Positions 32,295 to 63,510 of a stretch of DNA of 64,000 bases are shown here, in pieces. Where the stretch lies: positions 38,519-102,518 of IMG/VR virus record IMGVR_UViG_3300001679_000053; one strand, written 5' to 3'. The stretch is from a virus. Below the pieces are notes generated by a model. That model did no database searches. It worked only from the letters and a program-made list of their open reading frames with translations, and was not told the origin of the DNA. The position numbers were made by a program, and so were the translations under genes. Each line of letters begins with the position of its first letter. Positions within the stretch are counted from its first letter, which is position 1.

Positions 32295-32325
32295 TATACA
32301 CCTCTCAAATTATGGATTGTCTGTT

Positions 32326-32919: not shown

Positions 32920-32943
32920 TTTAAGTAATCTCCCTTAATATTG

Positions 32944-32950
32944 TAACTAG
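32944..32950 (-). promoter_or_regulatory. putative late promoter motif CTANTTA
   Basis: CTAGTTA in sheath-tube gap. Confidence 0.55.
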
Positions 32951-32965
32951 TTGGTTCATAATTTA

Positions 32966-40014: not shown

Positions 40015-41805
40015 TTAGCTAGTAGCGCCGGCTTCGCCGAGCATACCGCGCACAACAACAAGTCCATACATATCAGGACGAACCATCTTCTTCGCGTAAC
40101 GAGTCATCACGCCCTTGCGAGGCACGAAGTCTTCCGGTCCGAAGATCGTAGGTGTGGTCTGCAGTGGAACGTACGGTGCGTACACGTATCCGCTTTCAAG
40201 GAAAGAGGAACCGCGACGGCCGATGAGGACCACATTGCGGAGGAAGTACGGGTCAACAATGACATCGAACTTCTTGCTCAAGGAACCAACCTTGACTGAA
40301 CCAATACTACCCTTATCGTCGTCAGCAGTGACGGAAGCACGGAATCCAGCGGTGAACTCAAGGACGTTAGCAACTTCAGGTCCGCAGACAACAAAGTTAG
40401 CTCCGCCGCGAAGAGTCTTGCGGTGAATCTGTGCAGACACATCATTGATGGTCTCAACGAGAGTCTCGTACCACTCGGATACTGTACCGGTGAAGTCGGG
40501 AGCCGCAGAAGCAGCACCGATCTCAACGCCAGTAACCTTGTTCAAGAACAAGCCAGGTGAACGCGACCAGTAGTAGGTAGCAGCGGAAGCGCCATTAACA
40601 AGGTCACCAATGATCTCGCGATCAATCTCAAGAGCAATCTGCTCAGAGAGGATACTTGTAAGCTCAACCTCGGCATCAAGGTTGTGGTAGGCGTTAAGGT
40701 CTTGACCTAACTCCGGAGTCCACTTAGCCTTGAGCTTCTTGGTACTAGCGGTGACAGCCACGGAATCGACTTTGATGTCAATCTCGGGGATATCAGCGTT
40801 GTTCTCAAGTCCCCACTCGGCAGCACCAACGACAGCACCAATGGCGCTAGCAGCGTTGAAGTTGTCACGAATTGGAACCTGAACCGTGGTACCAGCCAAT
40901 GAAATGGTAGTAGACGCAGAAACTGCGATAGAAACCAGACGGACAGCAGAACCAGTGGCGGTATTAGCCTCAGTCGAGTCAACAAGCTGAGTTAAGCGAC
41001 GAATTTGACGCCATCCAGCAACACCCATGGCAACAGCAGTGTTCGCGGGGCTAACCGTAAACGCACCAAGGTTGTCGAAATCAGCATCTTGCTGAACATA
41101 ACTTGTCTTATCAGTATCCCAAACACAAACTTTGTAGTTTGTGCCTGAACCCGACAGGGCAAGAATATCAGGGTCGAAAACAATGAGCTTCTTCTGAGCC
41201 TCAGTTGCTGAATTAACAGCAAACTGAGCCTTGATGACACCAGTGTTTGCGTGTGCAGCACAAGCGACGGAACCGGTTGGGGAACCATAGGCATAACCGC
41301 GAGCAGAAACGGTACGAGGACCAGAAAGGTCAATACCAGAACTACTGAGCAGGTTAAGTCCGCCGGTCAACTGTGAACCAACCTTGTCACCACCATAGAT
41401 GGAGCCAGTGCCAGCAACGTTGCCGAAGCGACGGGTTTGTGCACCCTCGGTACCACCGAGATCTCCTGAGAACGTGAAGTCCAGGAAGAAGATGAGACCG
41501 CTTGGCAGACTCATCGGCTGAACACTAACAAGATCGTTAGCGATCAGACCCGCGAAGACACGGCGAACGATGGGGAATGCGACGGCAGCAAAGCCCTCAA
41601 CATCTCCAGCGGCCATGGAAGAACCCTCACGGAGAAGCTCTTTTGCTTGATTTTCAAGCAAACGAGCCATAGCTTGGCGGGATCGATCCTTTTCTATTCC
41701 TTCGAGTAGACCAGTCTTCTCCCACTTACTTAATAGTGCGTGCCCTTCTGCACGCATATCTCTGTTGACCATACCTTCGGTCAACCTTTCAACAATACCA
41801 GACAT
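40015..41805 (-). CDS. major capsid protein (T4 gp23-like)
   Basis: LLENQ, FPIVRR, VQPM..PSGLIF, LKAKWTPELGQDLNAYH.LDAE.EL, EIDREI, YAPYVPL, P.KGVMTRY. Confidence 0.97.
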   Translation of the reverse strand: MSGIVERLTEGMVNRDMRAEGHALLSKWEKTGLLEGIEKDRSRQAMARLLENQAKELLREGSSMAAGDVEGFAAVAFPIVRRVFAGLIANDLVSVQPMSLPSGLIFFLDFTFSGDLGGTEGAQTRRFGNVAGTGSIYGGDKVGSQLTGGLNLLSSSGIDLSGPRTVSARGYAYGSPTGSVACAAHANTGVIKAQFAVNSATEAQKKLIVFDPDILALSGSGTNYKVCVWDTDKTSYVQQDADFDNLGAFTVSPANTAVAMGVAGWRQIRRLTQLVDSTEANTATGSAVRLVSIAVSASTTISLAGTTVQVPIRDNFNAASAIGAVVGAAEWGLENNADIPEIDIKVDSVAVTASTKKLKAKWTPELGQDLNAYHNLDAEVELTSILSEQIALEIDREIIGDLVNGASAATYYWSRSPGLFLNKVTGVEIGAASAAPDFTGTVSEWYETLVETINDVSAQIHRKTLRGGANFVVCGPEVANVLEFTAGFRASVTADDDKGSIGSVKVGSLSKKFDVIVDPYFLRNVVLIGRRGSSFLESGYVYAPYVPLQTTPTIFGPEDFVPRKGVMTRYAKKMVRPDMYGLVVVRGMLGEAGATS

Positions 41806-41832: not shown

Positions 41833-43062
41833 TTATTTTATTCCAGCTAATCTTTTCATCCGTTCTTGTAATGGATCGGATGAAGGCGTCTCTTTACGAG
41901 AAGCCCTGATTGTAGAAGACCGGCGACTGATTACTTCGCTAAGTGATTGTGGGCTACGTTTTGGTGTGGCCACCACTGTGCTTTGAAGTGTTTCAAAGAT
42001 CGTCCTTGCTTCTGGGGCTGAACCGGCGTTGGAAATCGCTTCGACAATTTTATCTTTTTGTCGCTCATTTAAGGAGGTATTTCGTAAAATACGGTTCGTA
42101 TAAAGCAAACGAGCATTTGAAAGATTTACGTCATGAAGACCTTCTTTCAATTCTTGCACCGCTAGCTTATATTGTGTGTTTTGCTCATTGAGTTGTTTAT
42201 TTTCGAAAACCAACTCTTCTTGAGCTTTCTTTAAAGTTTCTAAATCGTCTTGTAGATCGGTGCTGCGGCGGTGGGCGATTTCTTTTTCCATCTCCCACTT
42301 CATGCTCTCGGATGAGCGGCCGGCCCAGCCCGATAGGGTAGCTCCCATGTCTACAGTAAGTTTTTCTATGATGGCATCAGTAAGGGAGTCAATATCGAAC
42401 TTCTCTTCCAAGCCTTTTTGTGCAGCATCGGTGGCTGCAATACCTGAAGCTGACGCCGTTTCCGCTTCGGCACTAGATGAACCTTCGTCATCTTCATCAT
42501 CGTCGTCGTCGTCGGTGTCGCCTGACTCTTGTGTGTCAAATAGGTTATCTTCTGGCGCGCTGAGGCCGGCTACTTCGACAATCTCGTCGTCCTCGTCCTC
42601 GTCATCGGCGCAATCATCGCCCTCTTCCGAAAGTATGTTTGCAATATCGTCGGCTGTGATGTCAAACTCTTGGTTCTCATTTATTTCATCACCTAACGCA
42701 GCAACAGCCTCTTGGAGAGCGCCTAAATCAATAGTAACGTCTATTTGCTCGCCTTGGTGGGGGAAGTCTTTTAAATTTTTGCCCTCTAAGTCCGAAAAAT
42801 CATCCGTGGCGGCCAGAGGGATCTCATTATCCTCATCAATTGTGTCTTCGGTTCCAGGCTCGGCAGGTTCGGTACCAAGATCAGGCATTTCACCACCCAG
42901 ATCAGGCATTTCGCCACCCAGATCGTCTTGCTCCAACAAATTATCCAAAGTTTCTTTAACTTCTTGCGAGTATTTTTCAATAACCGCAGTTTCGGCGTTC
43001 TTTAAGGCTGCTTCGCGCAGTGCCTTGGCGTCGATGATTGCTTCACTGAGCAAAGTAGACAT
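41833..43062 (-). CDS. prohead core / scaffold protein
   Basis: acidic coiled coil upstream of MCP; NLSNARLLY.N; ends RMKRLAGIK; start 43062 after AGGAG. Confidence 0.8.
   Translation of the reverse strand: MSTLLSEAIIDAKALREAALKNAETAVIEKYSQEVKETLDNLLEQDDLGGEMPDLGGEMPDLGTEPAEPGTEDTIDEDNEIPLAATDDFSDLEGKNLKDFPHQGEQIDVTIDLGALQEAVAALGDEINENQEFDITADDIANILSEEGDDCADDEDEDDEIVEVAGLSAPEDNLFDTQESGDTDDDDDDEDDEGSSSAEAETASASGIAATDAAQKGLEEKFDIDSLTDAIIEKLTVDMGATLSGWAGRSSESMKWEMEKEIAHRRSTDLQDDLETLKKAQEELVFENKQLNEQNTQYKLAVQELKEGLHDVNLSNARLLYTNRILRNTSLNERQKDKIVEAISNAGSAPEARTIFETLQSTVVATPKRSPQSLSEVISRRSSTIRASRKETPSSDPLQERMKRLAGIK
42875..42924. repeat. 21-bp tandem repeat (DLGGEMP) in scaffold gene
   Basis: AGATCAGGCATTTC(A/G)CCACCC x2 plus partial copy. 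Confidence 0.7.
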
Positions 43063-48580: not shown

Positions 48581-48684
48581 GTTTAAAAACCCTCCATATT
48601 ATATAAGTTTTATGTTTTGGCGGATAGCAAAAAAGGTACGCGCTCCCATAAATGAGAACACGCAACAGTCCCGCCATCCGCTTA

Positions 48685-48691
48685 TAAATAG
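48685..48691 (-). promoter_or_regulatory. putative late promoter motif CTANTTA
   Basis: CTATTTA before structured leader. Confidence 0.5.
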
Positions 48692-48712
48692 GCTCTTCGT
48701 CCTTCTTTCGCG

Positions 48713-49462: not shown

Positions 49463-49479
49463 CTGTAGGATCCCTCACA

Positions 49480-49486
49480 TAATTAG
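49480..49486 (-). promoter_or_regulatory. putative late promoter motif CTANTTA
   Basis: CTAATTA upstream of 49462 start. Confidence 0.55.
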
Positions 49487-49537
49487 TTTTATAAAGCCTC
49501 TAAGCTAATATTAGTTTTATAAAGTCTCTAAGCTAAT
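49482..49537. repeat. intergenic 28-bp direct tandem repeat x2
   Basis: ATTAGTTTTATAAAG(C/T)CTCTAAGCTAAT twice, one mismatch. Confidence 0.9.
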
Positions 49538-50187: not shown

Positions 50188-50189
50188 TA

Positions 50190-50630
50190 TTAACCGACCC
50201 CTATGGAGCCCGACCAACTAGGTCCAAGTGAACCACTTGTTTTGTTCTTGTTGATGCTGGTGAGTCCCGCGACAACTTGAACACTTGTAGCTTGTGCGGG
50301 TGAATAAAGCCAAATTTCCGAAACCTTCAGTTCAAGCCGGCCGCTACTTGTTTGTCCACCATTAGTTGCGTCCGCTTTAGGAATTGTAAAAAAGTAGCTA
50401 TTTGAAACGTGGCTTCCGCTCACTCCGTTTTCTGAAAACCCCACTCGTACGGGCTGTGCGCTAGTGTTTATAATCTGCACCCAGCGTGTAACAAGCGGAA
50501 ACTCTACCTTTTGTGCGGTAGATGCGTTAATGTTGCCACTAGCGAATGGGCGGCCGCTTACCTCATAGGCACCCACATGATTGATACCTACTTCTGCTGG
50601 CCAGCGCATTGTGGGACTATTATTTGCCAT
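50190..50630 (-). CDS. putative virion structural protein
   Basis: beta-rich; VGAYEVSGRPF..FP.VTRW; AGGAG RBS. Confidence 0.55.
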   Translation of the reverse strand: MANNSPTMRWPAEVGINHVGAYEVSGRPFASGNINASTAQKVEFPLVTRWVQIINTSAQPVRVGFSENGVSGSHVSNSYFFTIPKADATNGGQTSSGRLELKVSEIWLYSPAQATSVQVVAGLTSINKNKTSGSLGPSWSGSIGVG

Positions 50631-50673: not shown

Positions 50674-50907
50674 CTATTTTTTTCTATTGCGTCTTTGTTG
50701 TAGTCTTAGATGTTTTTGTTCATCTCGGATCCGGCGGCGTTCTGCTTTTTGGCGCTTTTGGCGCTTAGCATCAGATGGCTTGGTATACCTTCTACGTTCC
50801 TTCACCTCTTCAACAATCTTCTCTTTCTTTGTCTTCTTGATAAATCTCTTGATCATTCTCTCATGATTTCCACGGCATTCTTTTGCGCGGACAACAACAT
50901 TAGCCAT
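50674..50907 (-). CDS. rpsU: 30S ribosomal protein bS21 (phage-encoded)
   Basis: V.V.....ERMIKRFIKK.KKE.I.EE.KERRRYTKPS..KR.K signature; start 50907. Confidence 0.88.
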   Translation of the reverse strand: MANVVVRAKECRGNHERMIKRFIKKTKKEKIVEEVKERRRYTKPSDAKRQKRQKAERRRIRDEQKHLRLQQRRNRKK

Positions 50908-50912
50908 TATTC

Positions 50913-51332
50913 CTACTTCATTGCGTTCCACACATGTGAAGCGCCTCCTACTAGTGAACTAATGTCAACACCCGCATCCCGGGAGCTTCCTAGATCGACT
51001 GAGCCGGCTGCTGTGCCAGCGTTTTCTTCTCTGGACATAGGCGCTGTGCCTTCAAATAAATCCATCCCATTGTATGCATCTTTGCCAATGGAGTCCATTA
51101 ACTCTTGACGGCGAGCATTCATCTTTTGGCGCGACTCTTTCATCTTGCGAGCCTCTGCAGCGCGATTTGGTGGTGTCGGGGTGGCGGCACGTGACTCCAC
51201 TAGTGGCTTTGCTTGCATGCCTTGAACTACTTCGGATACAATGTTCGATAACATTCCTTCCTCTATAAGAACTTCATGTATGCATTCTTTTACTAGTGGT
51301 TTGATTAGTTGTTTTAAATCTGATTTTTTCAT
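50913..51332 (-). CDS. hypothetical head-module protein with amphipathic leader
   Basis: MKKSDLKQLIKPLVKECIHEVLIEE. Confidence 0.65.
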   Translation of the reverse strand: MKKSDLKQLIKPLVKECIHEVLIEEGMLSNIVSEVVQGMQAKPLVESRAATPTPPNRAAEARKMKESRQKMNARRQELMDSIGKDAYNGMDLFEGTAPMSREENAGTAAGSVDLGSSRDAGVDISSLVGGASHVWNAMK

Positions 51333-52885
51333 AATACTCTCTTGTTAATTCCTGCGATCGTTTGCCAACGATCATATGTTTCTTGAAGTGGTCCCGTGGG
51401 TCCCCGGTTTTGTGTACCGATTCGGGGAGTTGTTCGGGTCGCGCGCGGGCGGCTAGCCAGTTCGGAAGGCGCGGCGGAGCCGGGCTCAGGGGAATCCGCT
51501 GGATCCGTGGGGGGTGGCGCGCCAAGATCATTACGCACCCATGCAACGGCCGCCTTGAGCGCTTCCACACCTGCTTTAATTGTAGGAGATGGCGCATGTT
51601 CAAGCACCTCCAAAACAACATCTATATAGTTCTTCCCGTCGTCATTCTTGGCGTAGACAGCGGTGCGGATATATTCTTCGGGAACGTGTTCATAGAGTTC
51701 CTTCACACCGTTAACGGCTTTACCAGCTTTGAGAGCTTTGAATCCCTTGTCCCCGACTGCCATGGCTTTTGTGGCGGTAGCAAGTGCTTTTCCTGTTTTC
51801 CCAGTGGTTGCAACAGTTTTAGCTATCTTGCCTAGCCTTCCAAGTTTAGCAAATTTACCGACCACCGGAACTAAGGCAATTAAATCCAACATAGCCCAAC
51901 CTATTTTCTTCTGGTATAGATTTAAACCCAGGCTGGCAAGCGTAGCAGCAGACGGTATGAGGGTTGCTTCTGCGCCAGGGAACAGACCGGCGGCGCCGAC
52001 TATGTCCAATGTCGATCCCATTATCGCTAATGCTTTTTCCTTCATGGGGGATTCTTCATCTTCTTCCTCGGCTTCATCGGCAGGTGTGTCGGGCTCCTCT
52101 TCTCCGGTTTGTCCTGGGAGATTCCAAGTTGGTTGCTCAGTATCTTTGTTCCAATAAAAGGGTGTGCCGTCGGCGGATGCCCACTCTTCCCAGGTATCAT
52201 TCAGATGTCCCACAAAGGTCTCGCCGTTTGGACCGGTCAAGTACACCGGTTCTGGCTCAGGGCCAGGTCCGAGGGCATCGCCACCAATAGTGGTCGACTC
52301 TTCATCGGGAGGCTCGTCGGAGGTGGCGGTGGCACCCTGTGATACGTCATCACGGGGATCAGTGGTGTTGACAACCGAAGTGGCGGCTACAGGAGGAGCA
52401 GTAAACTTAACTGAATTAACGCGGCCCCAATAGTTTAAAGCTTTTATAAGAGCGGTGTTCTCTGCATCTGGGAGATTCCAGCCGGCTATTGTCTTCAGTA
52501 TCAGTGCTGTTCCTGCTGAGTCAATGATGCGATCCTGTTCGCTATTTAGTCCCTTTAAGCTTAATTCTAGCATGATGCCTTCATCACCGGCAATCTGAGC
52601 TATCACATCAATTAATGCTTGGATGTATTCCGGGTCTAAGGGGGGAGTAAGCCGGCCAAGAACCTGTTTCAAGGAATCCCGCTTGTATTCAGAGTTTAGA
52701 CCGGTGCTCACGTCTGGGTAATCGCTAGCTTGTGGGTCTTCTTCGGGTTCCTCCCAGTGATCTTCAGTATCATAGCCACTATCTCTCAGCCTCTGTGCGA
52801 GCGCGCTGGTCTCCTCAGACAAAAAGTTACGCCAATTTTCGTGGAGCAATTGCTGTCCTTCAAAGCTTGACCAGCTTTTAGTCAT
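51329..52885 (-). CDS. putative internal head protein with WW domain and pre-toxin-like segment
   Basis: LLHENWRNFLSEE leader; WEEWASADGTPFYWNKDTEQPTWNLP; LDLIALVPVVGK; ends PLQE..RWQTIAGI. Confidence 0.6.
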   Translation of the reverse strand: MTKSWSSFEGQQLLHENWRNFLSEETSALAQRLRDSGYDTEDHWEEPEEDPQASDYPDVSTGLNSEYKRDSLKQVLGRLTPPLDPEYIQALIDVIAQIAGDEGIMLELSLKGLNSEQDRIIDSAGTALILKTIAGWNLPDAENTALIKALNYWGRVNSVKFTAPPVAATSVVNTTDPRDDVSQGATATSDEPPDEESTTIGGDALGPGPEPEPVYLTGPNGETFVGHLNDTWEEWASADGTPFYWNKDTEQPTWNLPGQTGEEEPDTPADEAEEEDEESPMKEKALAIMGSTLDIVGAAGLFPGAEATLIPSAATLASLGLNLYQKKIGWAMLDLIALVPVVGKFAKLGRLGKIAKTVATTGKTGKALATATKAMAVGDKGFKALKAGKAVNGVKELYEHVPEEYIRTAVYAKNDDGKNYIDVVLEVLEHAPSPTIKAGVEALKAAVAWVRNDLGAPPPTDPADSPEPGSAAPSELASRPRATRTTPRIGTQNRGPTGPLQETYDRWQTIAGINKRVL

Positions 52886-53486
52886 TGTCCAACACCTCAT
52901 TTAGCAGTCTGTTAATTTTATCTGCTTTGGTGAGGATATTAGTGGGCTGTAAATCTTTTGCCTCCTTCATCATGAAGGCGTTCGGGGTAGATGGCTCGGA
53001 TACAAAGTCAAAACAAATCAATTGGAAGTCATCTTCTACGATGGTCTGCCCTTGTTGCTCAGTCACGGAGCCCATGCCTCGCGAGGAGATCCCTAGTTTA
53101 ACACCCGACTCTACTAAGGAGCGAAGAATGCCACCAGAAGGTGTGTTAAGTACTTTTACTTTGCCCATAACATTTTTGTTATCCCACCAAACTTCAGTAA
53201 TAAGGTGAGATGCATTTTTCAAATTGATCACTGAATCATCGGGATGGTCTAATTCACCAAGGGCGCGCTGTTCGTTTACCAGTTTGGTATAATTCTTCAT
53301 CTCGCGCATTAAAATTTTATGCGGATAAACTCTTCCGTTTCCATTTTGAACATCTGCCTCTTGAAGTTTGCCGCTTAAAATCATGCCTCCGTCGGCGACA
53401 TATCGTTTTTCGGCCTCGTTCAAAAGATCCTGACAGACGCCGCCTTCGCATAGCTCATAATACTCTCTTAAAAGTTTCTGACCCAT
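52878..53486 (-). CDS. prohead core protease (T4 gp21-like)
   Basis: NGNGRVYP, ALGELDHP, GISSRGMGS, DFVSEPST. Confidence 0.95.
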   Translation of the reverse strand: MGQKLLREYYELCEGGVCQDLLNEAEKRYVADGGMILSGKLQEADVQNGNGRVYPHKILMREMKNYTKLVNEQRALGELDHPDDSVINLKNASHLITEVWWDNKNVMGKVKVLNTPSGGILRSLVESGVKLGISSRGMGSVTEQQGQTIVEDDFQLICFDFVSEPSTPNAFMMKEAKDLQPTNILTKADKINRLLNEVLDND

Positions 53487-53488
53487 AG

Positions 53489-53557
53489 CTAACTTCCCTT
53501 ACAGCAGTGACGGACTGGCTGCAGCATCCACTTATTTGTCCAAATGTTTGTGTTCAT
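53489..53557 (-). CDS. putative 22-aa small ORF (MNTNIWTNKWMLQPVRHCCKGS)
   Basis: GGAG RBS 7 nt upstream; fills gap and stops 2 nt before protease ATG. Confidence 0.4.
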   Translation of the reverse strand: MNTNIWTNKWMLQPVRHCCKGS

Positions 53558-53840
53558 ATTTAACTCCGTGGTCTCCAAAGACCATATTTAAAATGTAAGA
53601 TGTTCCTGACGACACCCATCCAAGTAGGAAAAAGTTAACGACGGAAACGTCATAGCTAAATAGTTCCGTAAAGGGAGAAAGTAGCATTAAAAACCAACCT
53701 ACATGAAATCCCATGCACATCGGACATTTAAAAAGCTTTCCTAGCCTTCCTTTGGCGGGCCTTATTCTATCGAATATTGTACCATATACAATGATTTGTG
53801 TTAAGCCGTAAGCGCACAGTATGAATGTTAGTAATTCCAT
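53532..53840 (-). CDS. membrane protein with CxxC, DUF1360-like
   Basis: LT.IIV...IFDRIR...LFKCPMCMGFHVG; three hydrophobic segments. Confidence 0.65.
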   Translation of the reverse strand: MELLTFILCAYGLTQIIVYGTIFDRIRPAKGRLGKLFKCPMCMGFHVGWFLMLLSPFTELFSYDVSVVNFFLLGWVSSGTSYILNMVFGDHGVKYEHKHLDK

Positions 53841-54298
53841 TATTTTTTAACCGCGTGCTGGTTAAACTTGCTACCTAAAAATGCTTGCAGTTCATCATCC
53901 ACTACCGGTATAGGATCTGTGGGTTGAGCACTCTCTAATGAGGCAATCAAATCATTTAAAAATGCGGTCTCAACATTATCATCAACAATAGCCGATATAT
54001 CATCGTTCACATTTAACAAGTCCAGCCCCGTGTTGCTCTTAAACCCATCATCTGCTCCATATAATTTTTTCATAATATCGCGGGCGTCTTTGGCGCCCTG
54101 CCATAAAGAATAAATATTGCTTATGCCCGGGACTTGCTGGATAGCTACATCCGCGGCCATCTTTCCTGCTTCTTTACCTGCTTCTTTGGCTCTGTAAATT
54201 TTTATGGCTTTTCTCAGGTCACCGACTGTCGTAATCTTAGTTTCTTCGGTAACAACAAACTTGTCCCAGTTTTCCATTATAACTTTCATTTCGGACAT
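53840..54298 (-). CDS. putative internal head protein
   Basis: MKVIMENWDKFVVTEE leader. Confidence 0.55.
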   Translation of the reverse strand: MSEMKVIMENWDKFVVTEETKITTVGDLRKAIKIYRAKEAGKEAGKMAADVAIQQVPGISNIYSLWQGAKDARDIMKKLYGADDGFKSNTGLDLLNVNDDISAIVDDNVETAFLNDLIASLESAQPTDPIPVVDDELQAFLGSKFNQHAVKK

Positions 54299-54307
54299 GG
54301 GTAACTC

Positions 54308-54847
54308 CTATACTGTATACAAATAATTCGCGCCGTACGAGTTACGAACGTATCCAGGTCTGATCGATCCCTTCTCTACATTTTGTGGTACATCGCCAAG
54401 TTCAGTAGAATCAGCCTTGTCAGGGTGAAGGAGTTCGTCGTCTGTCATAGAGATAATTGCATCCGTGCTTTCAAAGTAGGGGCGTTCTTCATCAATAAAA
54501 TTTGATATGTTAATAAGCGTGAGTTTTGCGGGGCTAATCTTTTCAGAAGCGGACTCTTGCATTGTTGCTTCAAAAGAACCAAAGAAGGAGCCAGCCTTAA
54601 TTGACTCTGGGACAATCAGTCCGCGCTTTTGAAGATGGGTAAAGAGTCGGTTTTGTGCACCATACACCATATCGGTAATAACATCTTTTGGAAAAGCAAT
54701 AACTTTATTAGCTGATGGGGATAACACAATATCAATATCTCCGTGATCAAATACCATCACATCTCCGCTAATACTCTTTCGGGCGTCGAGTTCAAGTCTA
54801 ACTTTCTTTTCGTTTGACTTCTCGCCAACTTTAATTATTATGGCCAT
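54308..54847 (-). CDS. hypothetical head-module protein
   Basis: 179-aa ORF, overlapping operon packing. Confidence 0.6.
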   Translation of the reverse strand: MAIIIKVGEKSNEKKVRLELDARKSISGDVMVFDHGDIDIVLSPSANKVIAFPKDVITDMVYGAQNRLFTHLQKRGLIVPESIKAGSFFGSFEATMQESASEKISPAKLTLINISNFIDEERPYFESTDAIISMTDDELLHPDKADSTELGDVPQNVEKGSIRPGYVRNSYGANYLYTV

Positions 54848-55664
54848 CAGTAGACATCTCCTTTGCTAGTTTTTGGGTTTTTAGGATAGTCGTGAGCATC
54901 TTTTCGTTCATTCCCGCTTGGGCATATGAATCAAGTATGGTCAAAACCTGCTTGCTTTTCTCCACCATATCAGGATCTTCCTTAACATATTTACTCTGGC
55001 GTGCTGCAGCCATGATATCTTTCAGGCGTGAGATCTCTTCATTTAAAAACGTTTTTAACCCCAGCGCATTGTCAGAAAAAGAAGCGATGTAATGAGCTAA
55101 AAGTTCTTTTTGCTCGTCTAACAGTTCTCCTTCATATTTGTCATTAAACTTCTTAACAAAAGTTCTATAAACAACATTGTCTATTTGTTCTGCAATCTGT
55201 GATGGGTCTCTCTTTTCTCGCATCTCTGCAATCACCTGATTCTCTAAAATGACGCGCTGTTTTGGTGTGGTCGTATCAGAGAAGATTTGTGCTATAGTCG
55301 CAAGAGTCTTGTAATTGGGAACGAAGTTCTTAAAAATAGAAGGAGAGAGAGATTTATTTACCTCATGGATAAGTGCGGTCTGTGCCGCAAATAATTCCTG
55401 TGTAGGAATTAGCGCTCGTTGGCGCTTGCACTCTTTTAAAATCTTTTGGTGTGTCTCGGTATCTAGATCCTGATTTTCATACAATGAACGATAACACTCT
55501 AGTTCTTTCTTTAAAGAAGTGTTGACAGAAAAATGTTTCTTGACAATCTCTATAATTGTCTTTTGAGTCTTGGCGTCACCTCTGAGAATAGCTACTGTAT
55601 TTTCTCGAATGAGTGCCTCATATACAAATGCGGTGTTACGCTTTTTGTTGTGTCTTATCTTCAT
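54831..55664 (-). CDS. hypothetical protein downstream of portal
   Basis: 277 aa helical; KHNKKRNT-type start. Confidence 0.65.
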   Translation of the reverse strand: MKIRHNKKRNTAFVYEALIRENTVAILRGDAKTQKTIIEIVKKHFSVNTSLKKELECYRSLYENQDLDTETHQKILKECKRQRALIPTQELFAAQTALIHEVNKSLSPSIFKNFVPNYKTLATIAQIFSDTTTPKQRVILENQVIAEMREKRDPSQIAEQIDNVVYRTFVKKFNDKYEGELLDEQKELLAHYIASFSDNALGLKTFLNEEISRLKDIMAAARQSKYVKEDPDMVEKSKQVLTILDSYAQAGMNEKMLTTILKTQKLAKEMSTDGHNN

Positions 55665-57627
55665 CTTCTTTCTCCGTTAAAGTTTTGTTACTAGCATCCA
55701 AATCATTCAAAAGGTTTCGGACGGACTCGTTGATTTGGAAAACCTTATCCTCCTCATCCATCTCTCGCTGTTTATAAGTAGAGTGGTCGTATTCATTAAT
55801 ACCTATTCCAATACCAGAGCCATTTTTCAAAGTGCTGATGTCTGTAAGTCCGGGCACTATATTGCGTAGCGTATTGCTACTCTTCTCCTTAGCGTACTTG
55901 GATGCAATAGAGCGAGTTCGGGCGCCAGCATCGCGTCGATCGACCTTTTTGGGATGGTATACCTTTCCTTTAGCACCGGGCGTTAATCGTGGTGCGTTAC
56001 GGGAGCCGGGGGGTACTGCTAGGAGCGCGGACTCATCGCCGCCGCCTTCATCCGCTCCGGCATCACCGGCTGGCATTTCTTCTGGTCCGGCGAGGTCACC
56101 GCCTAAGTCACCGCCTAAGTCGCCGCCAAGGTCGCCACCTAGATCTCCGCCTAGACCACCACCAGCTTCGCCGGCGGCTGCAGCTTCTGCAACCGCTTGG
56201 AGAGCAGCATCGTGTTCTCTATCATAATACATTTCGCGCTGGTTCCGTGTGAACTCTTCATTAGACATCGCAAAAACGTGTTCAGCAACCCAGCGCCGTG
56301 AGAAAAATCCTTCGGTAGCTGAGCCAGCGATATCAAACTTCGTCTTCCAGTGCTCAAGCTCTTGAAGCTCTGCGATTTTGGATGGGTTGTTAAGGCTCAG
56401 ATCAAATCCCAACAGGTCGTCGCCGCGGAATCCGAGGGTATACAGGTGTATGATACTGATCTTAGTTAACTCAGCGATGATAACACGCTGCAACCGCTGT
56501 ACGGTGCGCGAGAAACGAATGTCTTTCTGGGCCAACGTTGTCTTGTCTTCTGCCGCGCCCTCGCCCATTGAAAGATAAGCTTGAGGAATTTTGAGAGCAG
56601 AGAACAGCTTGTCGCGAAGGTATTTGATATCATCAATTTGAGTAATGTTTTGTGCTCCTGCGAGGCTTTCGATTGTTGTCGCAGAGCCGGGTCGAACTGG
56701 TAGAAAGTAGTCTTCTTCAATAGACATGGGGTTATATCGTAAATCAACACGGCCAGTCTTATTATCAATAACAGAGTGGCGCTTGAGGTTCGACACAACC
56801 TTTTGCATGTATTGTTCCACATCCTGTGGGGGGATGGCTCCCACGTCAATCTTAAAGACTCGCCGCTCAGAAGAACGCACCACACGATAAGCCATCATGG
56901 CGTCCTCCATAAGAGTGAGTTGGCGCCAGATGCGGCGGGCGGGCTCAAGGATTGAGGTTCCATAGGGAGCGTACTTATCATTTCCAAGAATTCTAAAGTG
57001 TGCCACCTGCCAGTTTTCGAAGGTCATGCCGCCTGAGTTCCACTGGTATTGAACGTAATTTGGGTTTGTGGAGTCTAAGCCTTCGAGCCTTTCGATCTCA
57101 TTCGACGGAAGGGCAATAACAGATTGGACACCATATTTTTCATCAATGTCCAGATAAAGAAAGAAGTCCCCGTATTTGCACATGGTGCGGGCCCAACCAA
57201 AAAGATTGTATTTAAGGTTAAGGATGTTATCAAATAAAATAGCTAGGACAGCTTTAATCTCTTCATTCGGGCACTTGATCTTTAACATCGGACGCAAATC
57301 CGAATAGGTAGTCATCTCGTCGGCATATATGTCCATTGAGGACGCAATCTCTGGTGTGTATTCCATCTGATCAAAGTCCACATAGCGCTCTGCGCGTGCT
57401 TGATTTTGCATCGCGTTGGTAGCAATGATATCTAAAGGGTTATACAGTGTCTTCTTAAACTGCTGACCAGAAGCCGTCTGGAAGCGTGAAGAGAACTTAT
57501 CCAAATGTTGGCGTCGGATTCTTCTTCCCGACTGAGATCTGTAACTAATGATCGGTCCGGAGAATAATCTCGTTAAAGCTTTGAATAAGCTATTTTGTTT
57601 ATTTGCTGGGTTGTTGTCTAAGGGCAT
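55636..57627 (-). CDS. portal protein (T4 gp20-like)
   Basis: PEIA..DIYADE, L.LMEDA...YR..R..ERRVFKIDVG, EDYFLP.R, ALKIP. Confidence 0.95.
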   Translation of the reverse strand: MPLDNNPANKQNSLFKALTRLFSGPIISYRSQSGRRIRRQHLDKFSSRFQTASGQQFKKTLYNPLDIIATNAMQNQARAERYVDFDQMEYTPEIASSMDIYADEMTTYSDLRPMLKIKCPNEEIKAVLAILFDNILNLKYNLFGWARTMCKYGDFFLYLDIDEKYGVQSVIALPSNEIERLEGLDSTNPNYVQYQWNSGGMTFENWQVAHFRILGNDKYAPYGTSILEPARRIWRQLTLMEDAMMAYRVVRSSERRVFKIDVGAIPPQDVEQYMQKVVSNLKRHSVIDNKTGRVDLRYNPMSIEEDYFLPVRPGSATTIESLAGAQNITQIDDIKYLRDKLFSALKIPQAYLSMGEGAAEDKTTLAQKDIRFSRTVQRLQRVIIAELTKISIIHLYTLGFRGDDLLGFDLSLNNPSKIAELQELEHWKTKFDIAGSATEGFFSRRWVAEHVFAMSNEEFTRNQREMYYDREHDAALQAVAEAAAAGEAGGGLGGDLGGDLGGDLGGDLGGDLAGPEEMPAGDAGADEGGGDESALLAVPPGSRNAPRLTPGAKGKVYHPKKVDRRDAGARTRSIASKYAKEKSSNTLRNIVPGLTDISTLKNGSGIGIGINEYDHSTYKQREMDEEDKVFQINESVRNLLNDLDASNKTLTEKEDEDKTQQKA
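56092..56163. repeat. 12-bp tandem coding repeat (GGDL)n in portal C-terminus
   Basis: GGGLGGDLGGDLGGDLGGDLGGDLA. Confidence 0.85.
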
Positions 57628-57635
57628 TTATTTTC

Positions 57636-59222
57636 TCACTTTATAATCCATTTATATTGACTATATAAATCTTCTGCTTGATTCATTTTATCAAAGATGC
57701 TATCTTTTTTATAGCCATCTTGTCCTTTAATTTGAGTATTCATACTAGTTTTTGTGGTATATATCGCATCCACAAAGGCTTTTTGATAGTTTAACTCTCT
57801 AGCATTTGACTGTAAGGCCGTGTCTCTGACCCAACACGCAATCGCTAAAGCCATGATAAGGTCATCATGGTAGCCTTTCATTGCTTGCGGCTTACCGTTC
57901 CTCCAAATAAAAGTTTTCATTTCGTTAAGAGTACGAGATGAATATACCTTAATTAGTTTGTTTCTGATGAATTCTTCTAGTTTTGCAACAATCAATGGGC
58001 GCGTTTTCATTGTTGTGGAGAATCCGGGGACTGCGCTGTTTATAACTTCTGCTTGATACTGCTCTATATATTCGTGCGTAGATTTAACTGAATGATAAAC
58101 ATTCGGGTATCGATGATCATTGATGAGCTTATCCAAAACTGAATACCCAATATTGTTGTTTTCCACTACAAGCATGCAATTACCAAATTCTCTTCCCACT
58201 TGGTTCAGCAAGTTAGCATACATATCTAATGTTGGTTTTCCTTGGTATTCTCCCACTATTTCTAGCGTCTCAAGCTTGACAATGTGAAAAGTTGAAAAGT
58301 CGGCGCCGTCGCCGCGGGCCACATCAGCAACCATTAAATAATTGCACGTAGGATCAAATTCCTCCCAGATCCAGAAGTTACGGTCAAATCCGGTTCGGTA
58401 CTTCGGCTCTTTTATGTTAGAGGCTAACCATTCCATACACCCTGAATCTATAACTGTCTCGCCGGATGTGTTGAAGTTGCATGCTAACTCTTGTGCAATT
58501 TGTCGTTTAGACATATTTCTGGTTTCTTTATCATACCAAATTTTATCTCTATCCGGGTGGACGTCCCACGCTAACGTGGTTAGGTTAAAATTGTTAGCAC
58601 CAGCTTCCGCGTCGACGCAAGCTTTGTGGAACCAGTTACCGACACCGTTCGGAGTAGAGAGCGCGATGCATCGACCACCCGTTGACAGCGTGGGATATAA
58701 GCCAGTCCATAATTCTTCGAGCCCTTCAATATGTGCGGCCTCGTCGAGTACTAAGAGAGACAATGCTTCAGAACGACCAGCATCACCAGATGTGGATGTG
58801 GCTTTTATCGAAGAACCATTCGAAAGTTCAAAAGAGGTGCGGTTATCCACACTGATAGTGGCTATCTTCATCCAGTCGGGAAGGTTACGCATAATGTTCT
58901 TAACTTTTTTGACCAAGTTTCCAGCCGTTGCAAACTTAGTTGCCATAACCAAGATTGCTTTATCGCGATGGAATAGCATAAGCCAGACAACATACCCAGC
59001 CGTTATCGTGGAGATTCCAAGTTGGCGCGCTTTCAAGATAACGTTAAACCTATAATCATTAAAGTCTTTTAACAGTTCATCTTGAAAGTCATAGGTATCA
59101 AAAAGAATTAACCCATGCATCGGGTGAGATATTCTGGCATAGGTTTTAAGAAAATATGAGGGCTCTTTACCGCACTTTAATATTTCTTTGACTCTTTGCT
59201 TTTTGTCTAATTGGAAGCTCAT
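57636..59222 (-). CDS. terminase large subunit (T4 gp17-like)
   Basis: KARQLGIST, LLVLDEAA, LSTPNG, ADVARG, VENN, HDDL. Confidence 0.95.
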   Translation of the reverse strand: MSFQLDKKQRVKEILKCGKEPSYFLKTYARISHPMHGLILFDTYDFQDELLKDFNDYRFNVILKARQLGISTITAGYVVWLMLFHRDKAILVMATKFATAGNLVKKVKNIMRNLPDWMKIATISVDNRTSFELSNGSSIKATSTSGDAGRSEALSLLVLDEAAHIEGLEELWTGLYPTLSTGGRCIALSTPNGVGNWFHKACVDAEAGANNFNLTTLAWDVHPDRDKIWYDKETRNMSKRQIAQELACNFNTSGETVIDSGCMEWLASNIKEPKYRTGFDRNFWIWEEFDPTCNYLMVADVARGDGADFSTFHIVKLETLEIVGEYQGKPTLDMYANLLNQVGREFGNCMLVVENNNIGYSVLDKLINDHRYPNVYHSVKSTHEYIEQYQAEVINSAVPGFSTTMKTRPLIVAKLEEFIRNKLIKVYSSRTLNEMKTFIWRNGKPQAMKGYHDDLIMALAIACWVRDTALQSNARELNYQKAFVDAIYTTKTSMNTQIKGQDGYKKDSIFDKMNQAEDLYSQYKWIIK

Positions 59223-59899
59223 ACATCTTTCATGGCCGCTAATACCTCTTCTCTATTGGTGAGGTCTCCTTCGCCATCAAGCACAATCATTTCTTCAAGT
59301 CCATCTTTCCAAGCTTGATCAACTATCTGCGCATCAGACATCTTGCTAAATCCGTGAGGATCTCGTGTATCATACATTTCATAATCGTGGTAGTCGTCGA
59401 GGGCTTCGCGAATAAGTTCCATTAAATTTTCTAATTGGAAGCCAGCAACTGGTCGACCTTCAGCACCGGGGGAATAGAGGGTCTCTTCGTCTGGGTAATC
59501 TTCGTCGCCGGGCCTAGATAATTCAACACCAGGAATCTTTTCAAAAACTGTTTGAAAAAGTTCCGCTACTGATTCTGGATCCATGCCTTGGATTAAAGCA
59601 GTTAGTTGGTCCTCGGCGCCGGGCCCGGAGTCATTCTGGAACCCTTGGTATTCGCTCTCTGGAGCGTCGTCACTTGGGACGTCCATCGGGTAAGTATTGC
59701 TTGACGTCGCGTCGTCAGTCCCTGGGACTTCCGGTGGAGCCGGGACCGTATCATCGTCCTGGCCGGCCCATTCTGGCTTCTCTCCACCCTGAACCCATGC
59801 AAGTAGATCGTCCACCTTGTCTTCTGTTATAACTATGCCTTCTTCTGCGGCATACTCTTCTATAATGAGGCGATATAGTTCGGCGCGGGAGACATCCAT
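59219..59899 (-). CDS. acidic hypothetical head-module protein
   Basis: MDVSRAELYRLIIEE leader; internal LMELIREAL. Confidence 0.6.
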   Translation of the reverse strand: MDVSRAELYRLIIEEYAAEEGIVITEDKVDDLLAWVQGGEKPEWAGQDDDTVPAPPEVPGTDDATSSNTYPMDVPSDDAPESEYQGFQNDSGPGAEDQLTALIQGMDPESVAELFQTVFEKIPGVELSRPGDEDYPDEETLYSPGAEGRPVAGFQLENLMELIREALDDYHDYEMYDTRDPHGFSKMSDAQIVDQAWKDGLEEMIVLDGEGDLTNREEVLAAMKDV

Positions 59900-59904
59900 T
59901 GGTT

Positions 59905-60456
59905 TTACTTTCCTGAATTCTTAGGTCGAGTATCGTTGGATGGGCGCGGTCCATCCCAGCCGCCTTGATCAAGGAAAGTTTTCCAGCCCTCTTCAACGGT
60001 GTTAACAGAGCCGCTGTTGTCGTCGCTCATGTCAGAGGACAGCCCCCCAACCTTGTAATGCATCTTGGCTGTAACCCAAGAGCGAACTCGTGAAGAATTT
60101 TCAACACGCACATCGATCTCCCCCTCTTCGGTGAGAGCGACTGTGCGGCCTGTGATCTTCTTGTATTCTTTCTTGAGGAATCCTGCGATGTCTGCTACAC
60201 GTTGTGAAATTTCGTCTTCAAATCCTTGTGCGTAAACCTCTTTAAGTCTAATCTCAGACTGGTATCCAAGACACATCATGTCTCCGTAAAACTTTACATT
60301 GAAACCATCCATGACTCTTTGATCAATAAGGGCATCGCCCTCTTCACGGCGTAGAACGCCAGTCTTTGTGGTGGACTGGTCTTCACCAAGTGCCCCATCA
60401 TATGCATTTGCGGCGGCTTGGGAAAGCCCCTGTACTATTTCGTAAACTGTTGCCAT
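59905..60456 (-). CDS. hypothetical protein
   Basis: 183-aa ORF, TAATG overlap, GGAG RBS. Confidence 0.65.
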   Translation of the reverse strand: MATVYEIVQGLSQAAANAYDGALGEDQSTTKTGVLRREEGDALIDQRVMDGFNVKFYGDMMCLGYQSEIRLKEVYAQGFEDEISQRVADIAGFLKKEYKKITGRTVALTEEGEIDVRVENSSRVRSWVTAKMHYKVGGLSSDMSDDNSGSVNTVEEGWKTFLDQGGWDGPRPSNDTRPKNSGK

Positions 60457-60785
60457 TATTGTGCTTCTCCTTGTTGTGGTTGCTCTATTGATTTAGCAGC
60501 TTGCTGTTGTAAAAGTTTAAGTACCCTCTGTAAAAGGGGTCTGAATTTTGTTAGATCAACTCCCGGCTTTGCAGCCATGTCTGAGATGAACTTCTCTAGT
60601 TGATCGATGATATTTCTTTCTTGATTTGTGAATTCTTCTGCGCCGCCGGAGATGCGGTCTCGGGCGCCCTTAATTCTTGCGCCGGTGGACATAGAGCCGG
60701 CTTTAATCTTAGTGGGATCTTGCTCAACTTCTTCATTAATTACTTGACGAATCATTTCTTTAAGTGTTTCTTTATTTATTTTCAC
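60456..60785 (-). CDS. hypothetical protein with amphipathic leader
   Basis: MKINKETLKEMIRQVINEE. Confidence 0.6.
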   Translation of the reverse strand: MKINKETLKEMIRQVINEEVEQDPTKIKAGSMSTGARIKGARDRISGGAEEFTNQERNIIDQLEKFISDMAAKPGVDLTKFRPLLQRVLKLLQQQAAKSIEQPQQGEAQ

Positions 60786-61167
60786 TTGGTCTCCATCCCT
60801 CTTTCCATCTATCCTCTCTTCCTTCTACATATTGAATGTAACATCTATTGCAGCAATCAAATTTTAGAAGACAAACATCATCCATCGATTTCTTTGGGAA
60901 TTTCCCGCAGACAGGACATGTTCTTAGAGATTCTCTATTAAGTAGTTTTTTTGTAGCCTTTATGCCATTAACGTTTATTTTATCTTGCCACTTTTCCTTT
61001 AGGCTTTTAGCTTTATAAAAATCCTTCATCTGCTCAATATAATCTTTTTCCTTTTCTTTATCCCATTGGCTGCGTGGGTTTTGGATTGTCTCTTTTCCAT
61101 ATTTTTGAGAAATTGCTTTCTCAAACGCCGCGATCCGATCCAGTTCTTTCGTATTTTTATCTTTCAT
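60772..61167 (-). CDS. hypothetical Zn-finger protein
   Basis: CPVC...CCNRC; GRE.RW..GWRP. Confidence 0.6.
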   Translation of the reverse strand: MKDKNTKELDRIAAFEKAISQKYGKETIQNPRSQWDKEKEKDYIEQMKDFYKAKSLKEKWQDKINVNGIKATKKLLNRESLRTCPVCGKFPKKSMDDVCLLKFDCCNRCYIQYVEGREDRWKEGWRPSENK

Positions 61168-61579
61168 TTATCGCCCTATATGCGCCATATGAGCCCGCAG
61201 TACCAATGAGGATCCCACCAGCAAAATATAACCATTTGTGACGGGGTGAAGTTTTTTTTAATGAATCTGCGAGTATATTAATTTCTTTATCTTTCTGCAT
61301 TATAAACAAATCATATTCATCTGTTAAGGCTTTATGCTCAATTCTTAGATCTTCTAACTTAAACTCATACTTTTCCTTTTGAATCTTCAGTTGGTAATCA
61401 GTCTTTATGTCGTAAGCATACATGGCAAGATCATAATCTGCCAACATCTTTGCCATGGCTTTCTCATCGAAGAGAACGCCGGCAAATGGTGCGGGCGCTT
61501 TATACTCCAATATGGAAAATTTGGCGGGCTCAGTTGCATTCGCCGAAAGGCTCAACATCAAAAGAAGATTAAGGAACAT
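61157..61579 (-). CDS. exported coiled-coil protein, spanin partner-like
   Basis: signal peptide MFLNLLLMLSLSANA, coiled coil, C-terminal TM helix; overlaps i-spanin-like gene. Confidence 0.5.
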   Translation of the reverse strand: MFLNLLLMLSLSANATEPAKFSILEYKAPAPFAGVLFDEKAMAKMLADYDLAMYAYDIKTDYQLKIQKEKYEFKLEDLRIEHKALTDEYDLFIMQKDKEINILADSLKKTSPRHKWLYFAGGILIGTAGSYGAYRAINER

Positions 61580-61952
61580 ATTCAATACCAAACTTTGTCT
61601 CTATATCTTTAATTAGTGCCTGCTTATCATGTCTGAATTTTCTTTTATATTCATTATTCTTTTTCTCTCGAAGCACATCGAGTTCTTCTTGGGCCTTCTC
61701 ATACTCTTCTTCGATTGCTGCAATTGACTCTAAGAAGCTTTCCATCAACAACTGCTTCTCTTCTATTTCTCGCTTGTGTATTTCTTTTAAGCCTTCGATT
61801 TGTGCCTCATGAGATTCTATTTGGGTTTCGTACGCAGTTTGCATGAGCTTATAGTCGCGGCTATTCTTCAGGGCTATAACGGCTAAAAGCAACACTATTA
61901 GTATTGCTTTCCAGTTCTTCAGAGCAAATTCTAATATCTTCTGCTTAATCAT
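61569..61952 (-). CDS. i-spanin-like protein
   Basis: single N-terminal TM (ILIVLLLAVIAL) plus long coiled coil; follows holin. Confidence 0.55.
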   Translation of the reverse strand: MIKQKILEFALKNWKAILIVLLLAVIALKNSRDYKLMQTAYETQIESHEAQIEGLKEIHKREIEEKQLLMESFLESIAAIEEEYEKAQEELDVLREKKNNEYKRKFRHDKQALIKDIETKFGIEYVP

Positions 61953-62145
61953 TATATCCTTTTAGTCTAGCGATGCCATCAATAATTGTTTGGCCTCCAA
62001 TATAAATTGCTGAAATGATTACCCAGTCCTCGCTAGTGACATGTCCTGTAAATGTTAGCCCCGTGGCTGTAAGCCAGACCATCAACTTACGAGAGGTAAG
62101 CTTTGCTAGCCATGTATCCACAAATGCTTTTGTTGTTGCCATCAT
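61945..62145 (-). CDS. holin-like small membrane protein
   Basis: 66 aa, KLTSRKL then two TM segments, YIGGQ..ID; dual Met start. Confidence 0.6.
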   Translation of the reverse strand: MMATTKAFVDTWLAKLTSRKLMVWLTATGLTFTGHVTSEDWVIISAIYIGGQTIIDGIARLKGYND

Positions 62146-62189
62146 TTATCACTCCAATGTTGGGTCCGACCGGACTCCTCTTTCTCTGG

Positions 62190-62384
62190 TCAACCATCTT
62201 CTTCTATTTTTGAGGTGCACATCTCTTCTGCTTCATCTGCTGAGAGACTATCGGCACGTTCACTTGCGGGTTTATCTTTTTGTGCACAGGCCCAACGGCG
62301 CTGTTTTTCAGAGGATACTTCATCTAATACCGTCTTAAGCTCTTCTTTGATGATCTGCTTAAGTTGGGATTTGGTGATTTTCAT
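62190..62384 (-). CDS. small protein with MKITKSQLKQIIKEE leader
   Basis: ATGA overlap at 62381-62384; SEKQRRWAC. Confidence 0.6.
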   Translation of the reverse strand: MKITKSQLKQIIKEELKTVLDEVSSEKQRRWACAQKDKPASERADSLSADEAEEMCTSKIEEDG

Positions 62385-62908
62385 CTTCCCTTCCACCATT
62401 TTGTCTTTTTCTTCTCGGGTGCACACTTAGTTCCTGCGGGACACCACTTATATATATTGGAGAGATAGCCGCTAAGTTCTTCTTTGATGATCTCTGTAAG
62501 CTGAGCTTTGCTCATTCTTCCTTCCTTAACAGCTTGGGAGCCACCGGTTAGCTGAGCAAGCTCTTGAGGGGTGAAAGTCTTTGCTCTACATTCGGTTTCG
62601 CTACACAGGGTTCCAAATCCGGATTCCGTATCTACGTTCCATGTATCACCATTGGCGTCGGTAACCTTAACTTTCCCAGATTCCTCGGCTTGCTGGGAGG
62701 ACGGGGTGGTGCGCCAGTCATCGAAGGAGTCGCCGGCATGAGCAGTTGCGGGTGCACCGACACCGGCTAACGTACCAGCGAGTGCGGCGCGTGCGCCCCA
62801 CTTCTTAAGGGCTCTCGGAAGAATCTCTTCGATTTGCTGCTCAGTTAGTTCAAGTCCTTCCAATTCTTCTCGGATGATTTGTTTAAGTTGGGACTTGGTG
62901 ATTTTCAT
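62381..62908 (-). CDS. protein with MKITKSQLKQIIREE leader and internal signal-peptide-like segment
   Basis: leader, then KKWGARAALAGTLAGVGAPATAHA; second leader-like copy MSKAQLTEIIKEE. Confidence 0.6.
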   Translation of the reverse strand: MKITKSQLKQIIREELEGLELTEQQIEEILPRALKKWGARAALAGTLAGVGAPATAHAGDSFDDWRTTPSSQQAEESGKVKVTDANGDTWNVDTESGFGTLCSETECRAKTFTPQELAQLTGGSQAVKEGRMSKAQLTEIIKEELSGYLSNIYKWCPAGTKCAPEKKKTKWWKGR

Positions 62909-62909
62909 T

Positions 62910-63197
62910 TTAGAGTTTTCCTGCCATCTTAGCTGCGACTACGGAGTGGGCGGCTTTGAAATCGGTGATGGATTCACGGATGCTCTCTTCATTGCACGGT
63001 CCGGCGTACCATTCTTCGAAAAGCTCTAAGCCATTAACCTTCTTAACATGCTTTGATACACCCGCTTCTCGCAATACACGCAGAAAGATCTCTGCGCAGC
63101 ATCCATCTTCTTCCTCTACAATCACAGCCGTAACTGTAGCCGGGGTTGTCGTGGTGTTGCCACTTATCCATCCTGTTATTGTATTCCATAAACTCAT
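62910..63197 (-). CDS. hypothetical protein
   Basis: AAGGA RBS; operon packing. Confidence 0.5.
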   Translation of the reverse strand: MSLWNTITGWISGNTTTTPATVTAVIVEEEDGCCAEIFLRVLREAGVSKHVKKVNGLELFEEWYAGPCNEESIRESITDFKAAHSVVAAKMAGKL

Positions 63198-63210
63198 TTC
63201 ATTATTCCTT

Positions 63211-63510
63211 TTATTTCCTTACGAGATATTTGAGATCTTCTTCAATCCGACGCAACATGCCCATTTGCTCGTTTGCGTTGGCCGCGTTGATCATGTCCAG
63301 AATACGAGCCCAAACAGTCGGAAAATCGGTGTTTGGATCCACTTCGGCTGCTCCGGGAGCGGCATGCTCTGGCCCGGGCAGCTGCTCCGGGTCAGTATAG
63401 CCCAGTCTTCTTTGGTAGTCGGTCACCTCTTCTTCAATCTCATCTCTGTTTGTCGTCTCGTGTAAAAAATACCGAGGGTCAATTCTCTTCTTGTTTTTTC
63501 TTATAGCCAT
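63211..63510 (-). CDS. hypothetical protein
   Basis: AAGGA RBS; KRIDPRYFLHE start. Confidence 0.55.
   Translation of the reverse strand: MAIRKNKKRIDPRYFLHETTNRDEIEEEVTDYQRRLGYTDPEQLPGPEHAAPGAAEVDPNTDFPTVWARILDMINAANANEQMGMLRRIEEDLKYLVRK

Follow-up and report, generated by a model that had tools for sequence, protein, structure and literature searches.

A short N-terminal leader on unrelated head-module proteins of T4-like marine phages, a probable capsid-targeting propeptide

A short leader at the start of small head-module proteins

The window analysed here is the last 64 kb (64,000 nucleotides) of a single viral contig of 102,518 bp, IMG/VR record IMGVR_UViG_3300001679_000053. Nearly all of its genes lie on the minus strand, and Pfam comparison identified its head module as T4-like. 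Several small proteins encoded around the terminase, portal and protease genes of this module begin with related short leaders, here called type 1 and type 2, which probably constitute a T4-like capsid-targeting (prohead-addressing) propeptide system. An earlier note on this DNA had listed seven dissimilar open reading frames (ORFs) with such leaders; all seven were present on the minus strand where the note had placed them, but two of the type-1 examples were not significant on their own. The comparison set consisted of 80 loci fetched around portal homologues, across which the core head genes share 65-85% identity, and a hidden Markov model (HMM) of the leader was built from these loci with a match threshold of E<1e-3. 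IMG/VR contained at least 600 related contigs, most of which came from marine samples, and the closest cultured phages were Flavobacterium phage immuto and Microcystis phage Mel-JY01, with a portal identity of about 40%.

In the 80 loci, 110 distinct proteins begin with the type-1 leader at their start codon. All 112 matches of the HMM were on the gene strand, and about 110 of them start with an ATG or GTG in frame. The consensus comprises 16 residues, M-K-I-T-K-x-Q-L-K-Q-I-I-K-E-E-(L/I/Y/V/M). When only residues 1-12 were constrained, E14 was present in 104 of 108 leaders, E15 in 101 and a hydrophobic residue 16 in 105, and past residue 16 there was no conserved column, so that conservation stops sharply. 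Residue 12 was I or V in all 98 seed leaders, and the sequence I/L/V-x-E falls at residues 12-14. The pattern [LI]..[ILV][ILV].EE[hydrophobic] occurred 131 times in the loci as against 3.8 times in shuffled proteins, and 7 times in the phage's own genome as against 0.4 in shuffles.

The recurrence of the leader at gene starts in tandem arrays, together with the conservation of what precedes some copies (the YEWISN reading is one instance), could also be expected of a recombination or regulatory cassette in DNA or RNA, like the promoter-stem-loop cassettes of T4-type phages, with the peptide as a by-product. Codon analysis revealed that synonymous variation in the leaders was near background entropy (I12: ATT 53, ATC 40, ATA 10; E15: GAG 61, GAA 46) while the amino acids were kept, indicating that selection acts on the peptide and not on the DNA. 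A Shine-Dalgarno (SD)-like purine run precedes the leaders, positions -30 to -13 showed no conservation, and internal in-frame copies without a start codon retained the peptide. The codon analysis largely refutes the cassette explanation, which we find hardly credible.

The leader genes of the window are packed tightly into one operon with the gene for the large terminase (TerL) (Table 1). The ATG of the 64-amino acid gene overlaps the stop of the gene upstream (ATGA). The 175-amino acid protein is a fusion that contains a second, internal leader copy (62474-62515, E 0.007) preceded by V-K-E-G-R, and its last, C-terminal module is a separate ORF in two relatives (L001 and L002). The leader variant of the 109-amino acid protein is one turn longer and likewise ends in I-N-E-E; a similar N-terminus was found in relative G001. 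The 226-amino acid gene overlaps the TerL start and belongs to a conserved family with 19 members among the 80 loci, while the other four of the five leader genes in the window have homologues in just 3-11 loci. The leader proteins of the window matched no family in PHROGs or Pfam, and neither did 109 relatives.

A further protein, of 139 amino acids, adjoins the variable slot next to the protease gene and may be the ancestral bearer of the leader. Its residues 2-11 aligned with leader positions 4-13 at 70% identity (hhalign, probability 59%), and AlphaFold2 (AF2) predicted an extended helical fold, with a helix at residues 3-39 at a predicted local distance difference test score (pLDDT) of about 90. 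Alignment with hhalign revealed no relation of this protein to T4 gp67 or gp68.

Table 1. Head-module genes of the window and the leader or tail elements they carry (window positions)
Feature	Position	Strand	Element or remark	Match
64-amino acid gene	62190..62384	-	type-1 leader, codons 62337-62384	HMM E 3.6e-11
175-amino acid gene	62381..62908	-	type-1 leader at start, 62861-62908	HMM E 4e-9
109-amino acid gene	60456..60785	-	longer leader variant MKINKETLKEMIRQVINEE; GTG start	HMM E 15, not significant alone
226-amino acid protein, very acidic	59219..59899	-	leader variant MDVSRAELYRLIIEEY	HMM E 1.3e-5
Large terminase (TerL)	57636..59222	-		Pfam Terminase_6N
Portal, T4-type (gp20)	55636..57627	-		Pfam Portal_T4 1e-77
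152-amino acid gene in hypervariable slot	53840..54298	-	type-2 leader MKVIMENWDKFVVTEE (54242-54289) after M-S-E
Prohead protease, T4 gp21 type	52878..53486	-		Pfam Peptidase_S77 3e-32
523-amino acid variable protein	51329..52900	-	likely start 52885; type-2 element 52811-52849
139-amino acid conserved helical protein	50913..51332	-	leader-like N-terminus; invariant V-K-E-C	HMM E 2, not significant alone
Putative scaffold, 409 amino acids, acidic	41833..43062	-	directly upstream of capsid gene; tail PLQERMKRLAGIK (41836-41874)
Major capsid protein, gp23 type	40015..41805	-		Pfam Gp23 1e-72

Cargo, variable slots and the scaffold tail

Compared beyond residue 18, the 110 leader proteins (median length 136 amino acids) separated into 66 similarity groups, 57 of them singletons. 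These cargo groups are unrelated and range from 23 to 407 amino acids. No Pfam domain was detected among 109 cargo proteins. In a charge-hydropathy plot, 65% of the cargo proteins were predicted to be disordered, compared to 19% of the ORFs of the genome.

The type-2 leader, MKLIMENWxxFLxEE, has the same hydrophobic spacing (3/4, 8, 11, 12) and the same E14 as type 1, and its L/V-x-E occurs at the type-1 spacing. The relatives confirm type 2, for which the earlier note had given the proteins at 54298 and 52885 as examples: the motif MK[LI]IMENWxx[FY]Lx[ED] heads the variable genes of two slots. The first slot, between homologues of 54308-54847 and 53532-53840, is either empty or holds genes of 80-343 amino acids starting M(SE)MK[LI]IMENWxx[FY]Lx[ED]. 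The second follows the protease gene and varies as well, the gaps measuring 3-2146 bp; WSSFE...ENWRxFLxEE is often present close to the start of the proteins encoded there, and ...R-W/M-x-x-I/L-A-G-I-K at their end. The two leader types are interchangeable and occupy identical slots: in relative L067, type-1 leader genes fill the slot that elsewhere holds type-2 genes, and type-2 leaders (MNKLFENWRKHLNE) were found at the upstream position held elsewhere by type-1 leaders. An ORFan of 1186 amino acids encoded before the window (L081:6837-10397, minus strand; genome 25836-29396) has a start, MDISTGNWFEYLREEV, that resembles the type-2 leader; it gave no match in Pfam or PHROGs.

The leader proteins might instead be one paralogous family of structural or filler proteins outside the capsid that self-assemble by an N-terminal coiled coil, as in fibres or whiskers, and whose tails have drifted. 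Hydrophobic residues at 1, 3/4, 8, 11/12 and 16 do resemble a heptad pattern, the tails are disorder-prone and multi-copy proteins exist. The 66 unrelated cargo groups and their spread in length argue against such a family, as do the slots left empty in some relatives, which indicate that slot proteins are dispensable; it also leaves the Glu-ended boundary of the leader, and the cut-site-like joints described below, unexplained. We consider this origin improbable.

The C-terminus supplied a further shared element. The ORF directly upstream of the capsid gene probably encodes the scaffold, and about 70 of its 72 homologues end in R-M/W-x-x-L-A-G-I/L. The same type of tail was carried at the C-terminus by nine non-scaffold proteins of the protease-adjacent slot, so the earlier observation that the 52885 protein ends like the scaffold was real; in the window, the scaffold-like tail of this 523-amino acid protein lies at 51332-51391. 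The form common to the scaffold and the variable proteins is R-M/W-K-x-L-A-G-I-K. In both sets the motif stands within 5 residues of the stop, and it is almost confined to C-termini.

This common ending suggests a second, independent loading route. C-terminal peptides that bind the shell are known from phage scaffolds and from the cargo-loading peptides of encapsulins. The short tail of the scaffold and variable proteins is similar in kind, as if both bound the same site on the HK97-fold shell by analogy with those systems. It differs from encapsulin tags in having no sequence relation to them, and from shell-binding peptides in general in that it coexists with an N-terminal leader on some proteins. 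The motif was also observed near two N-termini, in a 213-amino acid protein of the same phage (ELRQFMKLANL; L081:17610-18251, minus strand) and in a 154-amino acid protein of phage immuto (RRMQKLAGII; L280:3049-3513, plus strand), and thus the tail peptide may act at the other protein end too.

Spread, cut sites and the capsid-targeting interpretation

At E<=1e-3, the leader profile matched 9,623 proteins in public metagenomes, each the representative of a 50% identity cluster. Among the best 150 database proteins, 144 carried an N-terminal leader copy, and many had 2-4 copies. The named sources were marine metagenomes throughout, and none of the matches was annotated.

The linkage to head genes and the absence from replication proteins that the earlier note had proposed as checks were both observed. 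Of 25 leader copies mapped in five large relatives, 19 lay within 13 kb upstream of the portal gene, and in 75 loci selected by the leader DNA pattern alone the commonest neighbours were TerL (36/75), two upstream-cassette genes and the portal (28/75). A check of these loci for some other recurrent neighbour revealed none. No replication protein carried the motif. Among the large ORFs of leader loci without head genes, Pfam identified one SMC-like ATPase only. The diversity of the fused parts, which the note had likewise proposed to check, is given by the 66 groups and by slots that are variable or empty.

One reading of this distribution is that the leader is a helix by which accessory proteins dock onto some machinery other than the capsid, such as the phage chaperonin, a further phage complex or a target in the host. 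Its bearers would then simply happen to be encoded in a plastic island that precedes the terminase gene. The cargo resembles many anti-defence and host-takeover proteins in its hypervariable, acidic and ORFan nature, the phage encodes a GroEL, and one relative has a leader cluster within an early-like miniprotein region. Most copies are located in the late head operon, and docking of this kind leaves unexplained why I-x-E is invariant, why hydrophobic-x-E joints precede internal leaders and why a scaffold-tail tag exists in parallel in the protease-adjacent slot; we regard it as rather unlikely.

The leader was also found in a cultured phage. A 252-amino acid protein of phage immuto (vB_FspM_immuto; QQO92108.1) that starts MKKSQLRQIIKEAL matched the leader profile with E 2.5e-6, the neighbouring 841-amino acid protein (QQO92109.1) contains an internal leader copy, and the immuto scaffold ends in RWQKLAGIIK. 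The leader matches came from the profile; when cultured phages were searched by tblastn with a consensus leader of 23 residues, no convincing match was obtained, the one hit being at chance level (E 8) in a tail-fibre gene. Literature searches turned up no virion study or proteomics for immuto and no virion study for Mel-JY01, and nothing relevant on the motif strings or on capsid-targeting leaders in metagenomic phages. A search of the ESM Atlas gave unnamed viral clusters and nothing else. As a cultured carrier, immuto makes the idea directly testable.

In T4, the targeting sequences are N-terminal propeptides of 10-19 residues, with targeting assigned to residues 4 and 7 and the direction of cutting to residues 8 and 10. 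The T4 protease gp21 cleaves after L/I-x-E; its cut in gp23 at L-T-E/A (between E and A) removes 65 residues (PMC9026906). The protease of the window is 34% identical to T4 gp21 (BLASTP 3e-28), with GELDHP and SSRG (His and Ser) conserved, and an S77 protease was present in all five large relatives. BLASTP aligned L-R-E/G of the capsid protein with the gp23 maturation site, and this sequence was invariant in 40 relatives. By this alignment, residues 1-60 (41626-41805), ending in L-R-E, are the probable capsid propeptide.

Proteins with more than one leader provided a further indication. A hydrophobic-x-E sequence occurred within 6 residues before the internal leader in 63% of copies starting with M and in 74% of non-M copies, which is about four times the 17% observed at random positions; in frame upstream of stand-alone leader genes the value was 18%. 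The latter control shows that the joints are not a by-product of the ribosome-binding sequence, and an SD-sequence artefact was ruled out on this ground. Judged by their residues, the joints look like cut sites.

Proteolysis of another kind would be involved if the leader were an N-terminal degron through which proteins are passed to a phage ClpP, acting with a host unfoldase, and removed at a set time. The N-terminal degrons by which ClpXP recognizes its substrates are short, with partly basic and hydrophobic character, and ClpP is encoded by this phage and by four of the five large relatives, in some of them twice. The S77 protease is no less universal, the specificity of gp21 accounts for the Glu-ended motif and the joints better than a degron does, and a leader copy inside a fused protein could not work as an N-degron. 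This makes the degron explanation very improbable.

On the capsid-targeting interpretation, the short N-terminal helix would dock a protein onto the scaffold core during prohead assembly, and the gp21-type protease would then cut after the invariant I/L/V-x-Glu (residue 14). In multi-leader proteins, the hydrophobic-x-Glu before each internal leader would let the protease split the chain into modules. A second route would use the scaffold's own C-terminal tail, borrowed by the variable proteins encoded beside the protease. The cargo would be a rapidly changing set of small proteins, disorder-prone and for the most part acidic, which either remain in the head and pass into the host along with the DNA or serve to fill the core and are expelled. 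Of the earlier proposal of portable tags loading varied effectors, the removable address tag fits the results, while "varied effectors" is unsupported, as none of the 109 cargo proteins had a Pfam domain and the cargo is mostly acidic and predicted to be disordered.

Several observations weigh against this interpretation. The mature parts of the cargo have a median isoelectric point (pI) of 4.7, and 81 of the 110 proteins lie below 6, while T4 IPI-III are basic (pI 8.9-9.5); the cargo thus has less in common with enzymes or with these basic internal proteins than with the acidic core proteins and internal peptides of T4. In their hydrophobic moment, the leaders did not differ significantly from shuffles, and their description as amphipathic helices found weak support. 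E15 and the hydrophobic residue 16 were conserved as strongly as the minimal cut motif, implying that presenting a cut site is not the only role of the peptide. The leader has E at P1', whereas the capsid site has G/S/N/A/T there in the relatives, and L/I-x-E is a short and common motif. Beyond M-K and hydrophobic-x-E, no homology to the T4 capsid-targeting sequence (CTS) MKTYQEFIAE (or MKTFKEF...) could be demonstrated. The AF2 model of the type-2 family had a mean pLDDT of 59.6, too low for a fold search, with low confidence in the type-2 leader. Certain leader genes are remote from the head module; the early-like cluster mentioned above belongs to G001, and in G005 a single leader gene stands between tail and replication genes. 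The conservation of ClpP in the clade is a further such point.

Compared to the CTS of T4 IPI, IPII, IPIII and Alt, the leader is similarly a short N-terminal propeptide with an M-K start and a hydrophobic-x-Glu end, placed on otherwise unrelated proteins that vary between related phages, and it likewise accompanies a protease of the gp21 type and a gp23-type capsid protein whose L-x-E maturation site is conserved. It differs in having 16 residues rather than 10, in conserving E15 and a hydrophobic residue 16 as well, and in its mostly acidic and disorder-prone rather than basic cargo. T4 has 3-4 copies, whereas several to about 7 type-1 copies occur per genome here (2-7 in the five large relatives mapped) and about 10^4 leader clusters worldwide, many proteins having 2-4 leaders; and the T4 genes occupy a separate locus, whereas the leader genes lie mainly in the terminase-portal operon. 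As anecdotal observations, leader-like strings occur in T4 head proteins (locus L082), namely ...DLIKEEK... in gp67 and MAKINELLRE in gp24, and ...LLIETW... of T4 gp21 resembles the type-2 core IMENW.

In the giant phages phiKZ, 201phi2-1 and SPN3US, many head-internal proteins are cut by a gp21-related protease at small-motif-x-Glu, paralogues have identical N-termini and a divergent remainder, and propeptides contain multiple cut sites (PMC5694885). The processing proposed here at x-Glu sites would be alike, but the giant-phage propeptides are mostly longer than 100 residues and their motif is A/S/G-x-E, while the present leader is short, uniform and of the form L/I/V-x-E.

A wider reading, put forward tentatively and open to considerable doubt, is that leader, borrowed tail and cut joints form an ocean-wide, two-ended capsid address code by which marine T4-like phages load about ten thousand fast-evolving families of small proteins into their heads, to be delivered with the DNA as a plug-in anti-defence arsenal. 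Should the capsid-targeting interpretation be right, one short peptide would explain 9,623 unannotated clusters of marine viral 'dark matter' as head-packaged. It would also allow virion cargo of uncultured T4-like phages to be recognised by a rule based on sequence, and would provide a compact tag for loading proteins into T4-like capsids.

Neighbouring genes

Other conserved genes accompany the leader genes, and all of those described in this paragraph lie on the minus strand. Between the leader genes and the terminase gene, 61157-62145 holds three small conserved genes (66, 127 and 144 amino acids) with transmembrane or signal-like segments, which were found in 25-28 of the 80 relatives and could be a lysis cassette of holin/spanin-like type. 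One gene upstream of the terminase gene, a conserved 183-amino acid ORFan (59905-60456; 43 of 80 loci, 66% identity) matched no family and may be a small terminase. The portal has a C-terminal extension (56070-56160) for which T4 gp20 has no equivalent; in it, five tandem GGDL repeats precede a stretch that is acidic and rich in Gly. Directly after the conserved 139-amino acid protein, a gene for ribosomal protein S21 (50674-50907) lies within the head module, and it occupies that place in 25 of the 80 relatives.

The T4 late promoter TATAAATA had no copy on the gene strand. The ClpP of this phage (Pfam 1e-31) is encoded at L081:16500-17141 and a trypsin-like peptidase at L081:6061-6717, and the gene for the GroEL-like chaperonin occupies genome positions 32161-33756. 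At 47219-50217 (minus strand), three adjoining fibre-like proteins of 453, 249 and about 200 amino acids have differing N-terminal parts and a common C-terminal module (...TIDG.dTVvL.sp.a...Y...g..w.i.).

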